The translations under genes were made by a program, and so were the position numbers. The notes under the pieces were generated by a model. That model was given only the letters and a program-made list of their open reading frames with translations, did not search any database and was not told the DNA's origin. Positions 1,632-32,019 of a stretch of 47,953 bases of DNA are shown one piece after another. Where the stretch lies: the IMG/VR virus record IMGVR_UViG_2554235123_000011; one strand, given 5' to 3'. This stretch comes from a virus. Lineage: Duplodnaviria > Heunggongvirae > Uroviricota > Caudoviricetes. Within the stretch, counting starts at the first letter, position 1. Every line of letters starts with the position of its first letter.

Positions 1632-4600
1632 TATGCAAGCCTCACAATATAGTTAAATGCGATGTTTTTGACGGTGTTTTCCGCGTTACCCGCAGCGTTA
1701 ACGGTGATGGTGTGTCCATGTGAACCAATCGCAACGGAGTGCGTATGCGCACCAATACCTACAGTATGTGCATGTGCGCCAGAACTTGCTGCAGTACCAG
1801 ACAGCGAGTGGGTATGAGCACCTGCTGACTGTGTCTGAATACGTTGATAATACGATCTATAGGAAGAAGTCTCCGGGCTTACTTGATACTGTGAATTCTG
1901 GACATAAGTGAACCCACCGCCATCATAAAATGCTAACGCAGAACCGCCGCCTCCTGGCCAACGAATACCATTACCATGAGTATGAACACCGGCAGACCCC
2001 GTAGAGCCACTCAGACTGTGCGTATGCGCCCCGGTGTTATTCGTGGATTTAGTGCCGTAATCAAACGACGATGTGGTTTTCGTCCCCAAATCCGTACTGG
2101 ATGCGCTGGCGCTGTGGGTGTGCGATTTTATGCCGTCCTGTTCCTGAGACAATACGGCCCGGCCACTGGCGGGTTTGCCCTTGATTGTCCAGCCGCGCAT
2201 ATCTGGAATAACACCTGAAGGATAGGCAATAGCCAGTTTCGGATATGCTGCCTTATCAAACGTCTGCCCCTGCATGATCGCATAACCTGCAGGTGGTGTA
2301 TCTGATGGCCACGGCAGCGGAACACCTGGCGGAAACGCTTCAATATTTGCCGAGCCGTCAAATTTTACGCCGTTAATTGTCCTTGCAGTTTGCAATTTGG
2401 TTGCTGTGCTTGCATTACCCGATAAAGATCCAGTGATACCACCACTCGCGTTTAATTTAGTTGCAATTGTAACATTGCCAGTATGGTTACTAATTATAAA
2501 CGGCCTTAAGCTATTGTGCGTACCAAGACTGTTACCCGAATCTGTCAACATAAAATATGTGTTTGATCCATCATTTCGGATAAAGAATCCATAGTTGCCA
2601 TAGGCAATACGCAGACCATTTGCTGACCTTGAAATAACCTCACCAGCAGCAGTTAAACCACCTGAAAGAGTCCCTCCAGTTAATGCCAATGCCCCAATAT
2701 TTGAAGGGGTCAATGTGATATTTGCACTACCATCAAATGACACACCGTTAATCGTTCTGGCTGCCTGAAGTTTCGTGGCGGTCGCAGCATTACCTGTAGT
2801 GTTTTGATTACCGGTAGCGTTGACTCCAGGCAAGTTGATATCTGCCGATCCATCAAATGCCACGCCCCCAATCTTACGTGCTGTCTTGATCTTGGTCGCA
2901 GTATCTGCGTTTCCGGTCAAATTACCAGTAACACTACCACCAACTTTTAGTCCATTACCGATGGACACCAACCCTGATCTTAAGTTTATAGAGAATGGTC
3001 TTAATGAACCGATGTCTCCATTTTCCCCCTCCCCTTCATTAGTCGGAATAAGATGAAGATGATCTTCGGAACGCCTAAAAATAAGGCCAAAGGCTTGGTT
3101 GAATATTCGAAGAGCATTTATCGTGCTGATTTTTAACTGCCCTCCCATTGTGTCGCCAGTTTTTTGAACTGAACTATCTTTAACAGTTTTAACTGCCTTT
3201 GGCGTTGCCGCCAGCTTTTCACTGGTGCTGTTTGTTGCACTGCTGAGCTGTACTATCCCCTTTTTCGTCGTGCTCGCATCCTCCAGCGCCACGGCGGATG
3301 CAATATCCTCTGCCCGTTTTGCTGCTGTCTCGGCGCGCGTTGCCGCGGATTCAGCAGCAACTTTGCTCTGAGATGCAGCCGTCGCACTGCCTGCCGCCTC
3401 TGATGCTTTCGTTGTTGCTGTCGTGGCACTACCTTTCGCTGCTGACGCTTGTCTGGTCGCCTCATCTTTTGAAGCAGACGCAGATGATGCCGATGACGCC
3501 GCTGAACTGGCTGACGATGCGGCTGCCGCCTTAGAGGAAGCAGCATTGTCTGCTGAAGTCTTTGCATTTGTTTCAGAGGTTTTTGCTGCAGAAGCAGACC
3601 TCGCTGCTGCAGTGGCTTGCTCAGTGGCTTTGCCAGCCTTCGTTGTGGCTGTTGAAGCGGATGATGCGGCGCTTTCTGCCGATTTTCCGGCGGCGGTGGC
3701 ACTGGCTGAGGCCTGCCCGGCACTTGTTGACGCGGCACTGGCAGATAATGCAGCCGCTGTTTTTGAACCTGCCGCAGCTGAGGCGCTCTGTCCCGCTGCT
3801 GTTTCAGAAGACTTAGCGTTCGTCTCGGACGTTTTTGCCGCCTTCGCGGAATTTCCTGCCGCCGTTGCCGAGGAAGCTGCACTACTGGCACTTGATGATG
3901 CATTCGTTTCTGAAGATTTCGCTGCCTCTTTTGAGGCCGCCGCACCCCGTGCCGAGGTGGCAGCTTCTGACGCCTTCATGGTCGCTGTGGATGCAGAAGT
4001 GGCTGCCGATTTTTGTGATGCTGCGGCATTCGTTTCTGACGTTTTCGCGGCACTGGCGCTGGTAGCTGCCGCGCTTTTTGATGACTCTGCAGCAGCAGCA
4101 CTTTTTGCTGCTTCACGGGCCTTTGTCGATGCCGTTCCTGCGCTGGAAGACGCTGACTGAGCCGACGACGCGGCCTGTCCGGCTGACGTGCTGGCGGCAC
4201 GTGCTGAGGCTGCAGCATCGGTTGCATGAGTTGCCGCCTCGCTGGCTGATGCACTGGCATCGCTGGCTGATTTTTTCGCGGCTGCCGTATTCTGTGCAAC
4301 CGCGGAGGCGTTACGTGACACCTCTTCCACCATCTGCTCAAAGCGGCGCAGTGCCTCCGGTCGGACATCATCCTCCGTCATGGCACCGAGAAAATCATTC
4401 AGCGTACCTGGTCTGGAACCTTCATAGACGGTAATGGTCCCGGCATGTGAAGGCGGAAAACCTTCAACCAGCAGGGTGACGCTGTACTGGCCATGCCCAA
4501 CATCCATGCTGTAACGTCCGGCTTCATCCGGATTTTCAGAGGCCACCGTGTTCACCACCACCGTGCTGCTGGTTCGTCTGGCCTTCAGCACAATGGTGCA

Positions 4601-25461: not shown

Positions 25462-25522
25462 CATCCGCATTTACCTGGTATTACATGATGAGTTCACGCA
25501 GCGACTGATAGAGGAAGGAAAG

Positions 25523-25702
25523 ATGGTTAGTAAAAGCAAGGCGCATTGCCGCCGCATGCTGCAGGCATTGCAACAGACGAGAGCAGGTATTTTTGACCAG
25601 TTGGAAAACTGCCAGCATACTTTGCCCGAGTATATCGCCATCTCATCGGAAACCAGTGCAACTCTTATTCATCGGGTTCCACCAGAGAAAAAGAAGAAAT
25701 GA
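25523..25702 (+). CDS. Hypothetical protein (59 aa)
   Basis: Strong SD (GGAGGAAGGA) 5-8 nt upstream of ATG 25523. Confidence 0.35.
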   Translation: MVSKSKAHCRRMLQALQQTRAGIFDQLENCQHTLPEYIAISSETSATLIHRVPPEKKKK

Positions 25703-25824
25703 ACAGTGAGGCGTTGTGTGGCATACAACGCCTTCTTCCATCATTCCTCGTCAGCCATGACAAAAATATAACCGCTGGCTCTTTCATTTTTCTCCTGCGT
25801 CCAGCCCCTCTCTACCTGGAAGCA

Positions 25825-26151
25825 TCAAGGACGTGACGGCGTAAAGATAAATTGTCTCTTCACTCCCTGACAGGGGCGATTCTTTTCAAATCGCCATTTC
25901 GCCATGGCCTTCACCACTTCATCACGAAACAAATTATGAGGCTCTGAGCGGAGAAAAACGATCCGTGTCACAGTCCCATCAGCACCAATATCGAACTTAA
26001 CCTCAACCAGCCCCTTGATATAATTTGCTGCAGCATATTCCGGATATCGTGGATACACCGTCACTAATTGCCGGGGCTCATCAGCTTTTTGCTGCGAGCA
26101 TCCCACTGCCAGGACAGATAACAGAAAAAGTAGTAAAAGGCGTCTTTTCAT
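25825..26151 (-). CDS. Lipoprotein with TonB C-terminal-like domain (108 aa)
   Basis: Lipobox LAVGC after MKRRLLLLFLLSV; YPRYPEYAAANYIKGLVEVKFDIGADGTV...FRDEVVKAMAKWRF aligns by eye to the TonB C-terminal domain; SD AGGAA upstream. Confidence 0.7.
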   Translation of the reverse strand: MKRRLLLLFLLSVLAVGCSQQKADEPRQLVTVYPRYPEYAAANYIKGLVEVKFDIGADGTVTRIVFLRSEPHNLFRDEVVKAMAKWRFEKNRPCQGVKRQFIFTPSRP

Positions 26152-26461
26152 TTTTATTCCTACGGGTCTTATTCTGACAATATATCCTGTGTTCCAGACT
26201 GCCACATCACCACATCCTGTGCCATTATCTGACTCACATTACATACATCGCATCGGGATACAGTAGTAGCACTTTCTGTAATACAGCTTCCTGTTTCTTC
26301 CACCATCGCACCGGGATAAACCCGCGAATCATTAACGCGGTAAAAACCCGGTGTGCATCGTTTTTAATTATCCCCGCACACTCGCGCAGAGGAGTCTCCC
26401 TGTCGGGCTGCGGTCTCTGTTAATGAGGGAATATAGCGACGATACGGCGCATCAACAAAAC

Positions 26462-26920
26462 TTATTTCAGGCACTGAGTGCGGATATAGTCCTGTGCCCC
26501 TTCCAGTTGCTTGTGCATCGTCATCAGCCGCTCTCTGAGGGTGAAATAATCCCGTGTAACGGTGTCTGCCAGTTGGGGGCCGGTTGCATTATCCACGCCG
26601 GAGGTGGTGGGGGCTTCACGCACGGAGCCTGGACAGGTGGCGTTGATCCGCAGGCGCTTACGACCAGCGGCAACGTCAGCGCGAAGAGTTTCATTTTCAG
26701 CTCTCGCATCGGCTAATTCCCTCGAGTATTTTGCATCGAGCGCAGCAACATCGCGCTGGCGCACCTGCATATCAGTAATGGTTGCGTTCGCCAGCTTCAG
26801 TTCACTGGCTTTGTTATCGCGCTGCGCTTTGTAGGTAATCGCGTTATCACGGTAATGGTCTGTTGCCATCCACAGCGCACCACAGGCCACCAGCAGAATA
26901 ACGATAAACGCGGAAAGCAT
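26462..26920 (-). CDS. Rz: Spanin inner-membrane subunit Rz (~152 aa)
   Basis: ...[14 protein letters not shown]...[29 protein letters not shown]... lambda Rz-like. Confidence 0.9.
26524..26709 (-). CDS. Rz1: Spanin outer-membrane lipoprotein Rz1, embedded in Rz in the +1 frame
   Basis: [17 protein letters not shown]...[30 protein letters not shown], lambda Rz1-like Pro-rich lipoprotein. Confidence 0.8.
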
Positions 26921-26931
26921 TCGGTTTATGT

Positions 26932-27063
26932 TCACCCCAGCAACCCCGACGAAGACAACATCATCCAGGCCATGGAAAGAAAAAGAGCAACCAGCATTAG
27001 TGAAAATGAAATGCCGACAATTACACAGAGGATCTTCGCCAGCGTTATGAGTTTGTCTGACAT
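26932..27063 (-). CDS. Small hydrophobic peptide (43 aa, one predicted TM helix) between R and Rz
   Basis: Strong SD AGGGAGGA before ATG 27063; [43 protein letters not shown]. Confidence 0.4.
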
Positions 27064-27077
27064 GCTTAATCCTCCCT

Positions 27078-27260
27078 TCACGATTTCAACGCAATGACCA
27101 GTTTTGCCAGCCCATACAGCATCGGGGACACAGCAACACCGACCGCCACCCACTTAATGGCAAAAGCCAGTGCTCTGCTGATGTCATCAGTTACAGGCGC
27201 TTTCAGTTCAAGGCCATTTTTCATAGTCAACCTCAACAGAATTCGTTTACACTTCGCCAT
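27078..27260 (-). CDS. Small membrane protein (60 aa, C-terminal TM helix) between R and Rz
   Basis: SD AGGGAGA before ATG 27260; [60 protein letters not shown]. Confidence 0.4.
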
Positions 27261-27416
27261 GTTCTCCCTTGCCTTACTCAAGGTCAGAAACACAAAACCT
27301 CGCTTGGTGCCAACAAACGGGGTTTTTACTTTTATTCACTTACGTTTCGCCAGTTCGCAGGATTTCGTGTTATCCGCCCGCGTGGCCATTCCTCATTTTT
27401 CAGCAAAATATTCTGC

Positions 27417-27950
27417 TTATCTGTCGATACCCCAGCACGCCAGCGCGCTCTCCTGGTCACGACGGGATACCTGACCGTAACAGTTGTTTGAACGAATACG
27501 GCAGTCTCTGCCACCGTCCTTAATCCACCAGCGAATCGCTTCGCAGGCACCTTTTCGATCACCAGCATTAATTCGTCTGTAAAACGTCGACGGGAAACAC
27601 TTACCGGGACCAATGTTGTACGGACAGAATGACGCGATCCCCGCTTTCTGGGGTTCGGTCAGCGGCACTCTGATGTTTTTCTCCACCCACGCCAGCGCTT
27701 TATCACGCTCAATGGCGTTAACCTGGTCGCATTTTTCCTTCGACAACTTCATGCCCGGAACGACAGGTTTGCCATCCACCATGATGGCACCACGGCAGAT
27801 GGTCCAGATACCTGCACCATCACGGTATGCCGTGGTGTGGTTGCCTTCCTTTTCATCCAGAAACTGGTCGAGAATGTCAGGCGCAGGCGCACCAGCGGCA
27901 ATCAGCGCCAGAACGGCAGCCGACAGGCCGTATTTGATTTTGGTGTTCAT
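27417..27950 (-). CDS. R: SAR endolysin (T4-lysozyme-type, GH24) R
   Basis: Gly/Ala-rich signal-anchor-release N-terminus YGLSAAVLALIAAGAPA; catalytic E-8aa-D-5aa-T spacing (EGNHTTAYRDGAGIWT). Confidence 0.85.
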   Translation of the reverse strand: MNTKIKYGLSAAVLALIAAGAPAPDILDQFLDEKEGNHTTAYRDGAGIWTICRGAIMVDGKPVVPGMKLSKEKCDQVNAIERDKALAWVEKNIRVPLTEPQKAGIASFCPYNIGPGKCFPSTFYRRINAGDRKGACEAIRWWIKDGGRDCRIRSNNCYGQVSRRDQESALACWGIDR

Positions 27951-27986
27951 GGATATATTAAATATTCAGCCGCTGTCCCTGGCCCA

Positions 27987-28880
27987 CTAAATACGCACTT
28001 TAAGATAAGTCAGCCCCGGATGAAGCCAGTAAGCCGGCCCTTTTTTAAAGGGTGGAGTATTAAAATCACGAAGAAGAGCCTCCCGCACAATTGCATCCTT
28101 ATCAGCACCACTGGCCAGCGCTTCAATCTCAGCGGCTACCTGAAGATATCCCATGCAACGGCCAACGCGCTTCATCAGCCCCTGCTTTTTATTGTTCTTC
28201 AGGTAATCAATGGCAAATTCAATGAGCTCCTCACTGTGCTGGTGCGATGGAGGTGTTACTTTCCCATTTTCTGAGATGGTTATTTTCCCAGCATCACCGG
28301 ATACAACAAAGGATGGCCGGTTACACTCCCATTCCGGGTCACTGAAATTATCATTATGAATACTGAAACACTCTGCGAGATTTCTGCTCATCACTTTCCG
28401 ACAATAATCGTCAAACGCAGCAAACTGCTTTTCATCGCCAGAAGGCACCAATATCGACCATTTCTTATTCAGCTCAACGACGTAGCTCTCCAGTTTTTCA
28501 ATACGTGATTCAACATCATCTTTTTCTGACCGCAGTGTTGACGGCGGCATCTTCAGAGAACAAGTAATTCTTCCCGGTAGCTTTCCTTTGTAGGTTATCA
28601 ACACATCCTGCGCCTCTAAAATTACGGGGCGCTTTTCCGGCAACGGTTCGTTCCATTCACATAACCCGGCAGCAACATCCATGAAAAACTGCTTCGCCTG
28701 CTTTTTCGCCTCAGCTTCGTAAAACTCCAGCGTGGCACCTTCAGTACGGTCAAGACTAATCGCCACATCTGGCAACAACAGCGACGCTTGCCCGTCACCT
28801 TCCGACTTCACAGTAACAGTAACCTTATCCCCGTAATTATTTATCCCCTTAACAACCAGTTCATATTTTTTATTCATCAC
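27987..28880 (-). CDS. Hypothetical protein (297 aa) inserted between pinholin and endolysin
   Basis: Long ORF with start abutting the S stop; no recognised motif. Confidence 0.6.
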   Translation of the reverse strand: MMNKKYELVVKGINNYGDKVTVTVKSEGDGQASLLLPDVAISLDRTEGATLEFYEAEAKKQAKQFFMDVAAGLCEWNEPLPEKRPVILEAQDVLITYKGKLPGRITCSLKMPPSTLRSEKDDVESRIEKLESYVVELNKKWSILVPSGDEKQFAAFDDYCRKVMSRNLAECFSIHNDNFSDPEWECNRPSFVVSGDAGKITISENGKVTPPSHQHSEELIEFAIDYLKNNKKQGLMKRVGRCMGYLQVAAEIEALASGADKDAIVREALLRDFNTPPFKKGPAYWLHPGLTYLKVRI

Positions 28881-28881
28881 T

Positions 28882-29097
28882 TTACTCTCCCCGCGCCGCC
28901 TTACGCCGGTCCTCTTTGATTTTGAAATACAGGTTAGTCAGATATGTCAGCAGCCCAAACAGCAGACTCCCCAGCACGCCTATTGCCGCCCACTGAGACG
29001 GGGAAACCCTGTCCAGCAACTGCAGGAACCAGTAGCCCGTTCCCACCGCTGACGTGGTGTATGACACACCTGTTGTGATTTTTTCCATCTGGTACAT
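28882..29097 (-). CDS. S: Pinholin S (phage 21 S21-like, 71 aa) with dual-start motif
   Basis: [10 protein letters not shown]...[41 protein letters not shown]; Met1 and Met4 dual starts; same length as S21. Confidence 0.85.
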
Positions 29098-29404
29098 ACC
29101 CCGTCTCCCGTTATCCGGAAGCTGACAACAATAAAAAAGCCACCAGTTAAGTACTGATGGCTCTGATAACTCATGCAGGCGTCTCAGACGACCCACTGAC
29201 ACTACCGGTGAGTTTAACGATACCTTCCATTTGACTGGCTCACTTTTTATGATGATGCCGGTGCATTTATCTCCAGCACCAGACTTTCTATCTCAACGCC
29301 ATACGTTGCATTTTTGGTAATATCCGTCAGCGTCAGTGCATTTAGTCCCACTGCCAGACCGTCTTTTATGGCCTGGAATGCCGGGCCAGTACGATGACGT
29401 AGTA

Positions 29405-29608
29405 TCACTCCGGCTCAGTTGCACCACTGACCACCACATCACCTTCTGCTGCAATCGCCTGCATCAGGGTATAAGGGGTTATGGCCACCGGACTACCAAA
29501 CGGCTGCCAGCCCTCTTTCAGTTTATGTGTCAGCTTTTCCGCAAGATCTGACGGCGACGCCGCCCTGACAACATCATAGTGTTTAAATGCCATGGTTCTT
29601 TCCACCAT
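29405..29608 (-). CDS. Small conserved prophage protein (67 aa), possibly the N-terminal remnant of a larger gene
   Basis: ORF upstream of the holin; an overlapping downstream frame encodes a further protein-like 45-50 aa. Confidence 0.45.
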   Translation of the reverse strand: MVERTMAFKHYDVVRAASPSDLAEKLTHKLKEGWQPFGSPVAITPYTLMQAIAAEGDVVVSGATEPE

Positions 29609-29853
29609 CTGAAAAATGATTCTTTAAAATACCTGACATGTAATACAGAAAAAACACAAAACCATACCTTAAATAAAAACCTCATCATCAAGCAGATATG
29701 CATGGATAAACTACAAGACGAGATATAAACCACCCTGCATTTAAATAAACAATAAACAACATCAGAAAAATAATTCTGCTCTATGGTTTACAATCAAAAA
29801 TATCATTTATACTTTTCAGAACATCACCAGCAAGGCATAAACAAGGAAACTAA

Positions 29854-30189
29854 ATGAAGTGGATTGTGATTGATACAGTTATCCAGCCATCATGCGGAAT
29901 ATCTTTTTCAGTCATATGGAGTAAAATAAAATTAATAATCTGGTATCAATCGGATGCTTTCTTACCTCCTGAAAGTATATTTACACTGACTCACACAGGT
30001 ATCATGCTCAATAACAAAGTGCTACCTGTAACCATTTACAACGTAGTACCATTCAATAAAACATTCTGGAATTTAATCAAAAACAGCCAGGAATGCCCTA
30101 CAAATACAGATAACGTATTGAATGAATGCTTTAATAACCGTTGCACTCTGCAAATATGTCCTTATGGGCTAAAACAACAAAGTCCATAA
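29854..30189 (+). CDS. Hypothetical AT-rich ORF (111 aa) oriented against the late operon
   Basis: Low-GC ORF with AAGGA SD; promoter-like GTTTAC...TATACT upstream (about 29787..29820). Confidence 0.35.
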
Positions 30190-30544
30190 GGAGTTTACTC
30201 ACATCTGACAAAATCAATATAAACAGCCCCTCCGGAGAGGGGCTGGAGAGTGGCGCTATGTGCCATTGCATGGTGCCGGGTGCCTCCCGGTGAATTCAGT
30301 ACCAGCACCTGAATCCGCGATTATCCCATATACCTACTCGCTGATTGCCCCTCCGCACAGGGGGATTCACCATGCCAGTTTCTTTTAACAAACTCCCCGC
30401 AAACCAGACAACAGTCAACCGCCTGAATTGTGAAGTATTTAAAAATTTCTCCCGCTAACTGATACCCGGCTAACAGTCTGGCGTTTTCTTTTTCAGCAAC
30501 GGGAAAGCAACAACCACCACACCCACCAGCCGCCCATTTACCAC

Positions 30545-30968: not shown

Positions 30969-31658
30969 TTAATTGACTTTTGCAATATCTCGTCGTGAAA
31001 AGGTCGCTTTTTGTTGCGCTCTTATTTTCACGGAGCAAATCAAGGATTCTCTATCGAGGCGCTTAAAAATATCGCACATCTCACGCCAGTAGTTCGCATA
31101 ATTATGGCTCCAGTTATCAGGCTTAACTCCACACAGTCTGGCAAGCTCCTGTCTCTGGTAGACCTCACACCCGGTAACCCATCCTCTGACATCCTGTGCC
31201 GCCAGCCAGATCAACTTCTTCACACGCTCCAGCGTTTTCACTGCAATTTTTCTGGAGCCGGACTGAGTTTTAAATTCACTCCACCCCCACTGCGTTATCG
31301 CGATCTGATGCTCCCAGCAAATGTTTCCGCCATAACACCACAACAACCACGCCTTCTGATGTTCTTCCAGTTCCAGAACAGCACGCCGCCACGATGATGT
31401 TGCAAACTCAACAGGACTGACCAGCGCAATTGATGAGCCTTTCGCCAGTGATTGTTTACCCTGGATCGGGGGATTATCCCGCGTGATCATTTTTCCGGTT
31501 ACCTCATCGCGGTAACGAATTTTTTTGCGTCTGTAACGCCCTGTATCGAACAGGGCATTTTCCTGCCAGGCTTCCAGCTGGCATTTTGTCGACCCACTGA
31601 GATCTGCAGTGGCAATCATGAGTTGCTCACGAACAAACTGTAAATACTGGTTATTCAT
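30969..31658 (-). CDS. Late-gene antiterminator Q (~229 aa)
   Basis: Position between rusA and the lysis cassette; not lambda-Q-like in sequence; SD GAGGTGGG before ATG. Confidence 0.6.
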   Translation of the reverse strand: MNNQYLQFVREQLMIATADLSGSTKCQLEAWQENALFDTGRYRRKKIRYRDEVTGKMITRDNPPIQGKQSLAKGSSIALVSPVEFATSSWRRAVLELEEHQKAWLLWCYGGNICWEHQIAITQWGWSEFKTQSGSRKIAVKTLERVKKLIWLAAQDVRGWVTGCEVYQRQELARLCGVKPDNWSHNYANYWREMCDIFKRLDRESLICSVKIRAQQKATFSRRDIAKVN

Positions 31659-32019
31659 GCACACCCACCTCTGTAATTCTTATCTCCAGCCGTCCACCAG
31701 ATACTGGCTGGCCACGTACAATATTGATTTCATCAAACTGCTCATCGTCCATTAACAACCCCGCGTGCGTCAGCGCATCCAGTGGTGCTTTCAGAATATT
31801 GTCCAGGTCACGACGACGCTTATCCGGTGGCTCTGCAATAATTTTTATTGCCAGCCGTCCGGACAGGCTTAATTTCAGTCGCTGCTGGCGAACAATAAGC
31901 GCCACTGCCCGGCGATAACGCTCCCCGGCTTTTGATACAAAATATGTGCTGCCACGGCGTCGCCAGTAAGTGTTCACCGTCGGCGAGTAAGGCAAAACAA
32001 ATTCTATGCGTTCGGTCAT
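31651..32019 (-). CDS. rusA: Holliday junction resolvase RusA (122 aa)
   Basis: ...PPDKRRRDLDNILKAPLDALTHAGLLMDDEQ...GGRLEIRITE matches the RusA catalytic region. Confidence 0.9.
   Translation of the reverse strand: MTERIEFVLPYSPTVNTYWRRRGSTYFVSKAGERYRRAVALIVRQQRLKLSLSGRLAIKIIAEPPDKRRRDLDNILKAPLDALTHAGLLMDDEQFDEINIVRGQPVSGGRLEIRITEVGVHE

Follow-up and report, generated by a model that had tools for sequence, protein, structure and literature searches.

Two small genes for predicted membrane peptides at the endolysin-spanin junction of a lambdoid Escherichia coli prophage

Why would a lambdoid prophage carry two short open reading frames (ORFs) between its endolysin gene R and its spanin gene Rz? 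The question is raised by a 47,953-nucleotide (nt) stretch of viral DNA, IMG/VR record IMGVR_UViG_2554235123_000011 (hereafter the window), a lambdoid Escherichia coli prophage whose late genes, including both small ORFs and the genes that flank them, lie on the minus strand. From the stop of R to a candidate GTG start of Rz we measured 481 nt, in keeping with the distance of about 480 bp that a first reading of the bare sequence (the original prediction) had given, and this gap contains the two ORFs, here called orfA and orfB. Because of their distribution, the selection on their codons and the membrane character of their hydrophobic segments, we conclude that both encode small, predicted inner-membrane peptides. 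On our reading they are genuine late genes that entered the R-Rz junction as accessories and do not belong to the lysis core.

Two conserved small genes between R and Rz

The longer ORF, orfA (27078..27260, minus strand), encodes 60 amino acids (aa; MAKCKRILL...ALKS), and orfB (26932..27063, minus strand) encodes 43 aa ending in GLLG. Both had been proposed in the original prediction, and the Prokaryotic Genome Annotation Pipeline (PGAP) places coding sequences at the same coordinates, annotated as hypothetical proteins (WP_001446668.1 and WP_001280932.1, respectively). The corresponding PHROG families, phrog_1115 (3.7e-42) and phrog_4906 (2e-23), are of ‘unknown function’, and database names are uniformly ‘hypothetical’. 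Read from the sequence, each ORF is preceded by the Shine-Dalgarno (SD) sequence claimed for it: AGGGAGA (27263..27269, minus strand) stands 3 nt before the ATG of the orfA long form, and AGGGAGGA (27070..27077, minus strand) stands 6 nt before that of orfB. The orfA stop had also been said to overlap the orfB SD; the two are adjacent, with the TGA (27078..27080) directly abutting the SD, and overlap only if the SD is read as GAAGGGAGG.

The single hydrophobic helix claimed for each peptide was recovered by Kyte-Doolittle hydropathy in both and, for orfA, in an AlphaFold2 model. From its N-terminus, the orfA peptide runs through a basic segment and an acidic linker to a weakly hydrophobic transmembrane helix at the C-terminus, and is modeled as one long helix over residues 23-59 with a predicted local distance difference test score of ~85. 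Its hydrophobic segment (1.88, residues 38-56) is weaker than that of the strongly hydrophobic, single-pass orfB peptide (2.89, residues 11-29), and falls within the range of the signal-anchor-release (SAR) and pinholin segments of its own lysis cassette. The N-terminus of orfB is assigned to the inside of the cell, with K4 and K10 ahead of the helix. Searches of both peptides against Pfam, NCBIfam, PADLOC, PDB sequences and the viral folds of BFVD returned no informative match.

Conservation across prophages, which had been set as a check on the original prediction, was found for the region as a whole and at the codon level for both ORFs, across hundreds of records. An 8.6-kb stretch around the R-Rz gap is identical, in all but 1 nt, to the chromosome of E. 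coli strain 7/2, and a 601-bp stretch with both ORFs occurs in 982 of 5426 complete E. coli genomes (≥80% coverage). The same 601 bp are present in seven plaque-forming phages, PhiR5_2 and the PhiR12 series; phages with both orfA and orfB (PhiR5_2, PhiR12_x) are functional and form plaques on K-12 or E. coli C. Among 84 related loci, third codon positions hold 12 of the 18 segregating sites in close relatives of orfA, and the ratio of nonsynonymous to synonymous polymorphism (pN/pS) is 0.15, compared with 0.105 for R. Against relatives of 40-80% protein identity, the ratio of nonsynonymous to synonymous divergence (dN/dS) of orfA is 0.07-0.30, with synonymous sites near saturation (pS 0.54-0.77), and conservation of the family reaches down to ~40% identity across genera. 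For diverged alleles of orfB, dN/dS is 0.27-0.56. These ratios indicate that both orfA and orfB are under purifying selection.

The distribution of orfB is closely tied to Rz. Each of the 276 phage records with the gene, mostly those of Shiga toxin (Stx) phages, retains it at full length, with 65-100% identity and often without annotation; across alleles 57-98% identical, residues D3, K4, V14, V16, G17, S19 and F20, all in the N-terminal half, are invariant. In Stx phages it follows the antirepressor gene ant and lies directly upstream of Rz, and its homologue in Sakai (Sp5) is ECs_5707. The start of Rz in the window (i-spanin, 26462..26935, minus strand; PF03245, 2e-47) is ambiguous between a GTG at 26935 and the ATG at 26920 chosen by PGAP; the GTG would give MNINR, with a basic residue ahead of the helix as in lambda Rz. 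The orfB stop overlaps this candidate GTG as GTGA, so that ribosomes translating orfB are probably passed on to Rz. Stx phages have a gap of a few nucleotides between the orfB stop and an Rz ATG with its own ribosome-binding site (RBS).

The orfA cassette and the R-Rz junction

Upstream of orfA lies a hairpin that resembles a terminator, preceded by an A-tract and followed by a T-tract (AAAAACCCCGTTTG..CAAGCGAGGTTTTGTGTTT; 27294..27326, minus strand). As a significant structure in its own right this hairpin was rejected (z -1.1), and the case for it rests on conservation across the family. A homologous hairpin, composed of an A-tract, a GC-stem and a T-tract, precedes the ORF by 30-75 nt in 16 of 16 diverse members, and one is likewise found upstream in 8 of 9 further contexts examined later. 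Alignment of the 16 hairpins gives 10 consensus pairs, 3 of them with compensatory changes, and the loop sequences are nearly identical across unrelated genomic slots. The presence of the hairpin upstream of diverse members, the likeness of its loops between unrelated slots and the compensatory changes in its stem therefore argue that it travels with the gene. By this evidence, orfA is one copy of a mobile cassette in Enterobacterales phages, composed of the hairpin as its 5′ element, an SD-bearing leader and an ORF with two starts.

The second in-frame start consists of an internal SD (GAGG) and the ATG of Met13 (27222..27234, minus strand), and would yield a short form of 48 aa. The arrangement GAGG-N6/9-ATG is found in 15 of 16 diverse members; the codon for Arg10 is invariably the rare AGG and that for Leu11 invariably TTG, while adjacent codons vary at their third positions. 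Met13 itself is almost invariant, and many database entries begin there. The long form adds ~12 residues and 4-5 basic charges to a short form that begins MKNG, and both end in one weakly hydrophobic helix. In high-GC relatives, the 12-residue basic extension is conserved at the protein level with different codons. Because the codons of the second start are invariant and the extension is conserved in protein sequence despite these different codons, both isoforms appear to be under selection. A relative of the short form only (49 aa, ending VRWW) occurs in a prophage remnant on Yersinia enterocolitica chromosomes (L118-L120; gene at 3001..3150), where Rz begins 2 nt later and a different 45-nt hairpin (-29.5 kcal/mol) takes the place of the usual one; this protein is present on >1000 contigs.

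Relatives differ in how the leader reaches the main ORF. In GER2 and Salmonella-type relatives, the SD that serves the orfA long form in the window belongs to an upstream ORF of 8 codons; the stop of this short ORF and the GTG that starts the main one overlap as GTGA, and the SD is sequestered by a stem. The upstream-ORF part is deleted in the window, and therefore the upstream SD and ATG would start orfA directly. At the other end, the IRWW codons of relatives (..TGGTGGTGA) provide an SD for the following gene. The family as a whole conforms to the pattern xKY[KR][KR][IF][LF]xRL[ST]-MK[ND]G[LI]Ex[DK]APV followed by one hydrophobic helix, many members ending in IRWW. A profile search of 1.84 billion representative proteins returned only 20 relatives, all of 20-90 residues except for one match to a 4413-aa repeat protein, and an alignment-based search returned 217 homologous clusters from Escherichia, Salmonella, Klebsiella, Serratia, Yersinia, Enterobacter and metagenomic phages. 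Two contig scans of species-representative genomes found no relatives, a metagenome scan found 2 loci only, and two loci from one viral scan (L106 and L107) were discarded as false positives. Elsewhere, two or three small helix-only ORFs stand in tandem after the hairpin (L093, 1870..2550; L105, 3501..3896; L108, 1654..1929), and several unrelated tandem small ORFs share the IRWW-stop end, which doubles as the SD of the next gene.

About half of the independent orfA-family contexts, ~10 in number, occupy the slot between an endolysin and Rz or an o-spanin. The endolysins in question are of three types (SAR lysozyme, M15 peptidase and peptidoglycan-binding hydrolase), the orfA-type stop is often 1-2 nt from the spanin start, and a methylase or HNH gene sometimes lies alongside. 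The other slots follow the major capsid protein or genes for tail fibres or fibre assembly, separate a tail tube or major tail protein from the chaperone (in siphoviruses as well as P2-like myoviruses), lie within baseplate clusters, or fall between K-like and I-like tail genes. Among the slots of orfA relatives, that between endolysin and spanin is thus not the sole one, though strongly over-represented.

At the R-Rz junction itself, BLAST breakpoints resolve the window into a three-part recombination mosaic. The first part comprises R and a 94-nt non-coding tail (27323..27416, minus strand) and is common to Stx phages and GER2; homology to P27 runs from within R to 27323, and homology to GER2 extends to 27262. 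The second part, with hairpin, leader and orfA, is also found in a Salmonella-type prophage (L101) that lacks orfB and has orfA abutting Rz. The third part, orfB together with the beginning of Rz (its 5′ end), is common to the window and to Stx phages (P27, Sakai Sp5) that have ant in place of the orfA unit. Conversely, GER2, Salmonella-type prophages and others have an orfA-type gene by itself between endolysin and Rz. Given this mosaic origin and the independent assortment of the two genes, the suggestion in the original prediction that they form a functional pair, as toxin and partner or as an exclusion pair, did not hold up, and their independent distributions led us to reject a co-evolving pair.

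Additional alleles of the junction include R-orfA-(28-aa remnant)-Rz, R-orfA-orfB-orfA′-28aa-Rz, and orfB followed by an orfA fragment; the 28-aa ORF (MSAEFIRAMAFSIRIVAIAVLVWAIRWW) is a remnant of an IRWW-type orfA relative. Rearranged junctions with duplicated or truncated pieces of orfA were seen at L053 (2068..2650), L080 (2719..3032) and L116 (1501..1750), and rearrangements of this kind, including those joining orfB to an orfA fragment, would explain chimeric (fused) database proteins such as P0091 and P0094. As the original prediction had stated, lambda has no such insertion, since R and Rz overlap there; the site is also empty in the K-12 prophages DLP12, where R and Rz overlap, and Qin, where rrrQ and rzpQ overlap. 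Given the three modules, the multiple junction alleles and the empty site in lambda, DLP12 and Qin, these comparisons therefore identify the R-Rz junction as a cargo-collecting recombination hot spot. In related phages it carries other moron-type cargo, namely ant and a DNA methylase. In Stx phage P27 (L004), a terminator-like hairpin (GGCACCGTAATGGTGCC then TTTGTCATTT) opens the ant insertion directly after the common 94-nt R tail.

Candidate roles for the two peptides

What would two such peptides do, and when would they be made? Both genes are co-oriented with S, R, Rz and the terminase genes, downstream of the late antiterminator gene Q (30969..31664, minus strand; PF06323, 2.2e-82), which lies upstream of the lysis cassette. 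No sigma-70-like promoter was found on the coding strand in 25700..29700, and a sense promoter between the hairpin and the ORF or in the first codons was rejected, as no acceptable -35/-10 pair is present. With no promoter found on the coding strand and the terminator-like hairpin standing ahead of orfA, lysogens probably do not express the genes, which would instead be transcribed late through Q antitermination. Read-through of terminators mediated by Q is established lambda biology, and it is the basis for the read-through proposed here: the hairpin would keep the orfA cassette, which has no promoter of its own, silent in the lysogen until Q-modified RNA polymerase passes it, and only then would the cassette be transcribed with the late operon.

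Both peptides would then accumulate in the inner membrane late in infection, where they may affect the triggering of the holin, the release of the endolysin or the membrane potential. The long and short forms of orfA could act as a pair in the style of holin and antiholin, while orfB, travelling with the 5′ end of Rz, would through its translation feed ribosomes to that gene. Late accumulation in the inner membrane, a location mostly in lysis cassettes and a holin-style dual start together make the tuning of lysis the most plausible role. We thus tentatively read orfA and orfB as encoding accessory membrane peptides, expressed late, that would modulate the membrane step of lysis much as holins and antiholins do, with a probability of about 0.4.

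The closest parallels are the dual-start holins, lambda S107/S105 and phage 21 S21-71/S21-68, which are likewise small late membrane proteins from the lysis cassette, made from two in-frame starts with their own SDs, the longer product being the more basic at its N-terminus. The orfA helix is also as weakly hydrophobic as SAR and pinholin segments. A dual-start motif for products that would differ by N-terminal basic residues, as in the holin/antiholin class, was found for orfA only, orfB having one start. In contrast to these holins, orfA has no sequence or profile similarity to them, a single C-terminal helix and an uncharged tail, its extension is 12 residues long rather than the 2-3 of dual-start holin/antiholin pairs, its relatives are also found outside lysis cassettes, and the prophage already has its own S holin. 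Holins have at least one transmembrane helix and a charged hydrophilic C-terminal tail; each of the two peptides has one helix and lacks such a tail, ending in KS (orfA) and SSSGLLG (orfB). Against the holin families of Pfam and PHROG, orfA had no Pfam match and orfB matched only DUF3930 at E=0.08, below the cut-off.

The resident holin gene (28882..29097, minus strand; PF04971, 2e-32) is the first gene of the lysis cassette and encodes a phage-21-type class II holin of the pinholin type that starts MYQMEK and is named ‘class II holin family protein’ by PGAP. Compensation by orfA for a holin that lacks the antiholin lysine (MYQM versus MKSM alleles) was considered and rejected, both alleles co-occurring with orfA. 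The orfA helix (residues 36-51, 27108..27155) resembles the second transmembrane domain of the pinholin (holin residues 35-49) with a local score of 38, reached in 2 of 300 shuffles (z 3.9), a weak, composition-prone likeness that is not family-wide and serves as a lead only among 16 comparisons of hydrophobic segments. Spanins offer no parallel in the window: neither peptide has a periplasmic domain or a lipobox, and Rz and Rz1 are present separately.

A second parallel is the releasin gp25 (DUF2730) of phage Mu, a small membrane-tethered accessory lysis factor with a cytoplasmic segment, whose gene lies near that of a SAR-type endolysin (PMC9239132). The orfA peptide is similarly small and membrane-tethered, with a cytoplasmic segment and a gene near a SAR-type endolysin. 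That endolysin, the R product (177 aa; 27417..27950, minus strand; PF00959, 2.4e-24; phrog_7 endolysin), has an Ala/Gly-rich, signal-anchor-like N-terminus (MNTKIKYGLSAAVLALIAAGA; Kyte-Doolittle 1.74, residues 9-27), and its short cytoplasmic N-terminus (MNTKIKY) also contains lysines. Unlike gp25, orfA has no DUF2730 match, places its cytoplasmic part first and its helix last (the releasin has an N-terminal helix and then a cytoplasmic domain), and has relatives that also accompany M15-peptidase and other non-SAR endolysins; orfB differs in having no soluble domain.

Several observations weigh against a role in lysis, or against the mode of expression proposed with it. No family of holins, antiholins, releasins, spanins, toxins or defence proteins was matched by either peptide. 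Roughly half of the contexts in which orfA relatives occur lie far from lysis genes, so that position alone is no proof of a lysis role and a strictly lysis-specific reading is weakened; one relative sits in a P2-like tail operon without Q-type antitermination, which strains the notion of genes silent until antitermination. In the window, the hairpin is weak, with a minimum free energy of -12 kcal/mol, z -1.1 and one stem mismatch, and the 3-nt spacing between the SD and Met1 of orfA is short. Selection on orfB is only moderate, and the C-terminal half of its product is variable. Lastly, the cassettes of lambda, phage 21-type and P22-type phages lyse normally without orfA or orfB, and any effect on lysis would therefore be modulatory. 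We consider doubtful a bolder version in which orfA cassettes form a new class of dual-start membrane effectors, self-insulated and moving between late-operon junctions that terminators mark. Their isoforms would differ in topology or activity and would target the lysis machinery in trans, for instance through pairing with the pore-forming helix of the pinholin; leakiness would be checked by a cis-antisense RNA sharing a bidirectional hairpin, and orfB would be a second, Rz-coupled trans-acting helix in most Stx phages.

Small inner-membrane proteins are a common exclusion device, and a first rival explanation holds that the peptides are made in the lysogen as lysogenic-conversion or superinfection-exclusion morons that block DNA entry or another step of incoming phages, or otherwise benefit the host, in the manner of HK97 gp15, P22 SieA and T4 Imm. 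Morons are said, after Juhala et al., to lie between genes that are adjacent in related phages, with their own sigma-70 promoter upstream and a factor-independent terminator downstream. The location agrees, as R and Rz are adjacent, indeed overlapping, in lambda and DLP12, as are rrrQ and rzpQ in Qin; the junction also bears ant and DNA methylase cargo, a TonB-domain lipoprotein gene occupies the nearby bor slot, and the orfA family moves among many late-operon slots much as morons do. Like lambda bor and lom and HK97 gp15, orfA and orfB are extra, slot-moving genes for small envelope proteins. Unlike such morons, they share the orientation of the late operon and seem to rely on late read-through transcription: no sigma-70-like promoter is present near them on the coding strand, and the conserved terminator-like hairpin stands upstream of orfA, the opposite of the classical order of promoter, gene and terminator. 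No PADLOC defence or exclusion profile matched either peptide at E≤0.1, and a conserved dual start with coupling to an upstream ORF would be unusual for exclusion genes. Taken together, we regard exclusion as unlikely.

A further rival concerns orfB and the 28-residue mini-ORFs of the same slot, which might be junction filler left over from recombination, translated only to couple ribosomes to Rz and yielding a functionless peptide. The GTGA overlap of orfB with the candidate Rz start fits this idea, and Rz overlaps its upstream gene in lambda and DLP12, so that coupling would be the ancestral state. L080 and L053 keep the 28-aa orfA-type remnant as an ORF in the slot, the dN/dS of orfB is moderate and its C-terminal half varies, and its product weakly resembles the transmembrane segment of lambda Rz (z 4.3, a lead only from the same 16 comparisons). 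A mere spacer is at odds with the full-length retention of orfB in every phage record, with seven residues that stay invariant across alleles and with a strong SD of its own at optimal spacing; moreover, Stx phages separate the orfB stop from an Rz ATG with its own RBS, and coupling is thus not always by overlap. We give filler a minor share of the probability, on a par with exclusion.

Slightly less probable again is the proposal that the orfA cassette is a module like type I toxin-antitoxin loci, with a membrane-peptide toxin whose leader and SD are masked by a short cis-antisense RNA that starts from a promoter in the first codons and ends at a bidirectional hairpin. The hydrophobic ~50-aa peptide recalls hok/mok/sok, as does the tight translational control of relatives, in which an SD-sequestering stem and a GTGA-coupled, short overlapping upstream frame resemble mok/hok. 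With its conserved A-tract and T-tract, the hairpin could terminate transcription on both strands, and 10 of 16 members have, at a fixed position, an antisense promoter-like site (T[AG]G[TA]CA-18 nt-TA[TC]A[CA]T, 8-10 of 12 matches) predicted to start an RNA of ~65-100 nt at the orfA start codon, which the hairpin might end; synonymous positions of codons 4-11 are also unusually conserved. On the other side, high-GC members lack a -35 element, the promoter-like hexamers may be by-products of the conserved K-Y and L-T-M codons, and there is no separate toxin promoter. The cassette had no Rfam match, an E-value scan of 25500..30500 returning only STnc100, away from orfA and orfB, and orfA has no homology to Hok, Ldr, TisB, Ibs, ShoB or similar toxins and lies within a phage late operon. 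Such a module would be compatible with a lysis-modulating role and does not exclude it. Finally, that neither ORF is a gene is very improbable: both are short and ORFs of that size are common by chance, but chance frames in a spacer would not account for variation biased towards third positions, for dN/dS that stays low where dS is saturated, for conservation that extends to ~40% identity between genera, for the conserved SDs, or for frames that stay open in hundreds of records.

Neighboring genes and significance

Between holin S and R lies a 297-aa ORF of the DUF1327/YdfR family (27987..28880, minus strand), which is intact here, whereas PGAP gives only a partial pseudogene in the near-identical strain 7/2. 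The o-spanin gene Rz1 (26524..26709, minus strand; PF06085, 4.4e-20) is embedded in Rz, and nothing terminator-like was found between orfB and Rz. Directly after Rz/Rz1, in the ‘bor’ slot, 25825..26151 (minus strand) encodes a 108-aa lipoprotein with the lipobox LAVGC and a TonB C-terminal domain (PF03544, 1e-12), which could interfere with TonB-dependent uptake; the name ‘Rz-like spanin’ given to this family as PHROG 1267 looks mislabelled. Directly downstream of Q, in the leader region of the late promoter, 30215..30404 (minus strand) matches the small RNA family STnc100 (Rfam, 132 bits; gathering score 47). Between Q and the holin, on the opposite strand, PGAP annotates the anti-adapter protein IraM, an RpoS stabiliser, at 29854..30189 (plus strand), with no Pfam match.

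The ORFs themselves were already in databases as hypothetical proteins, and insertions between R and Rz, such as ant, are familiar. We found no paper on orfA or orfB when searching the literature by accession, by locus tag (ECs_5707), by phage name and by topic, and a survey of Stx-phage lysis cassettes does not mention them. In the literature searched, both orfB as a near-universal, Rz-linked small gene of Stx phages and orfA as a hairpin-led, dual-start mobile cassette across Enterobacterales appear to be undescribed.

Lambdoid lysis cassettes are regarded as fully parts-listed, with holin/antiholin, endolysin and spanins. To this list orfB would add a conserved, often unannotated membrane peptide of 43-44 residues directly upstream of Rz, present in hundreds of sequenced Stx phages and ~18% of complete E. 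coli genomes, and orfA would add a hairpin-led, dual-start family of small genes that spans Enterobacterales. The genes are short, there are cloned phages that form plaques on K-12, and the predictions are directly testable whichever role applies. If the peptides act in exclusion or in a toxin-like manner, the cassette would provide a compact new model for how toxic small genes are safely carried in late operons. Should the peptides prove to tune the timing of lysis, burst size would be affected and so, in Stx phages, would the moment at which toxin is released.

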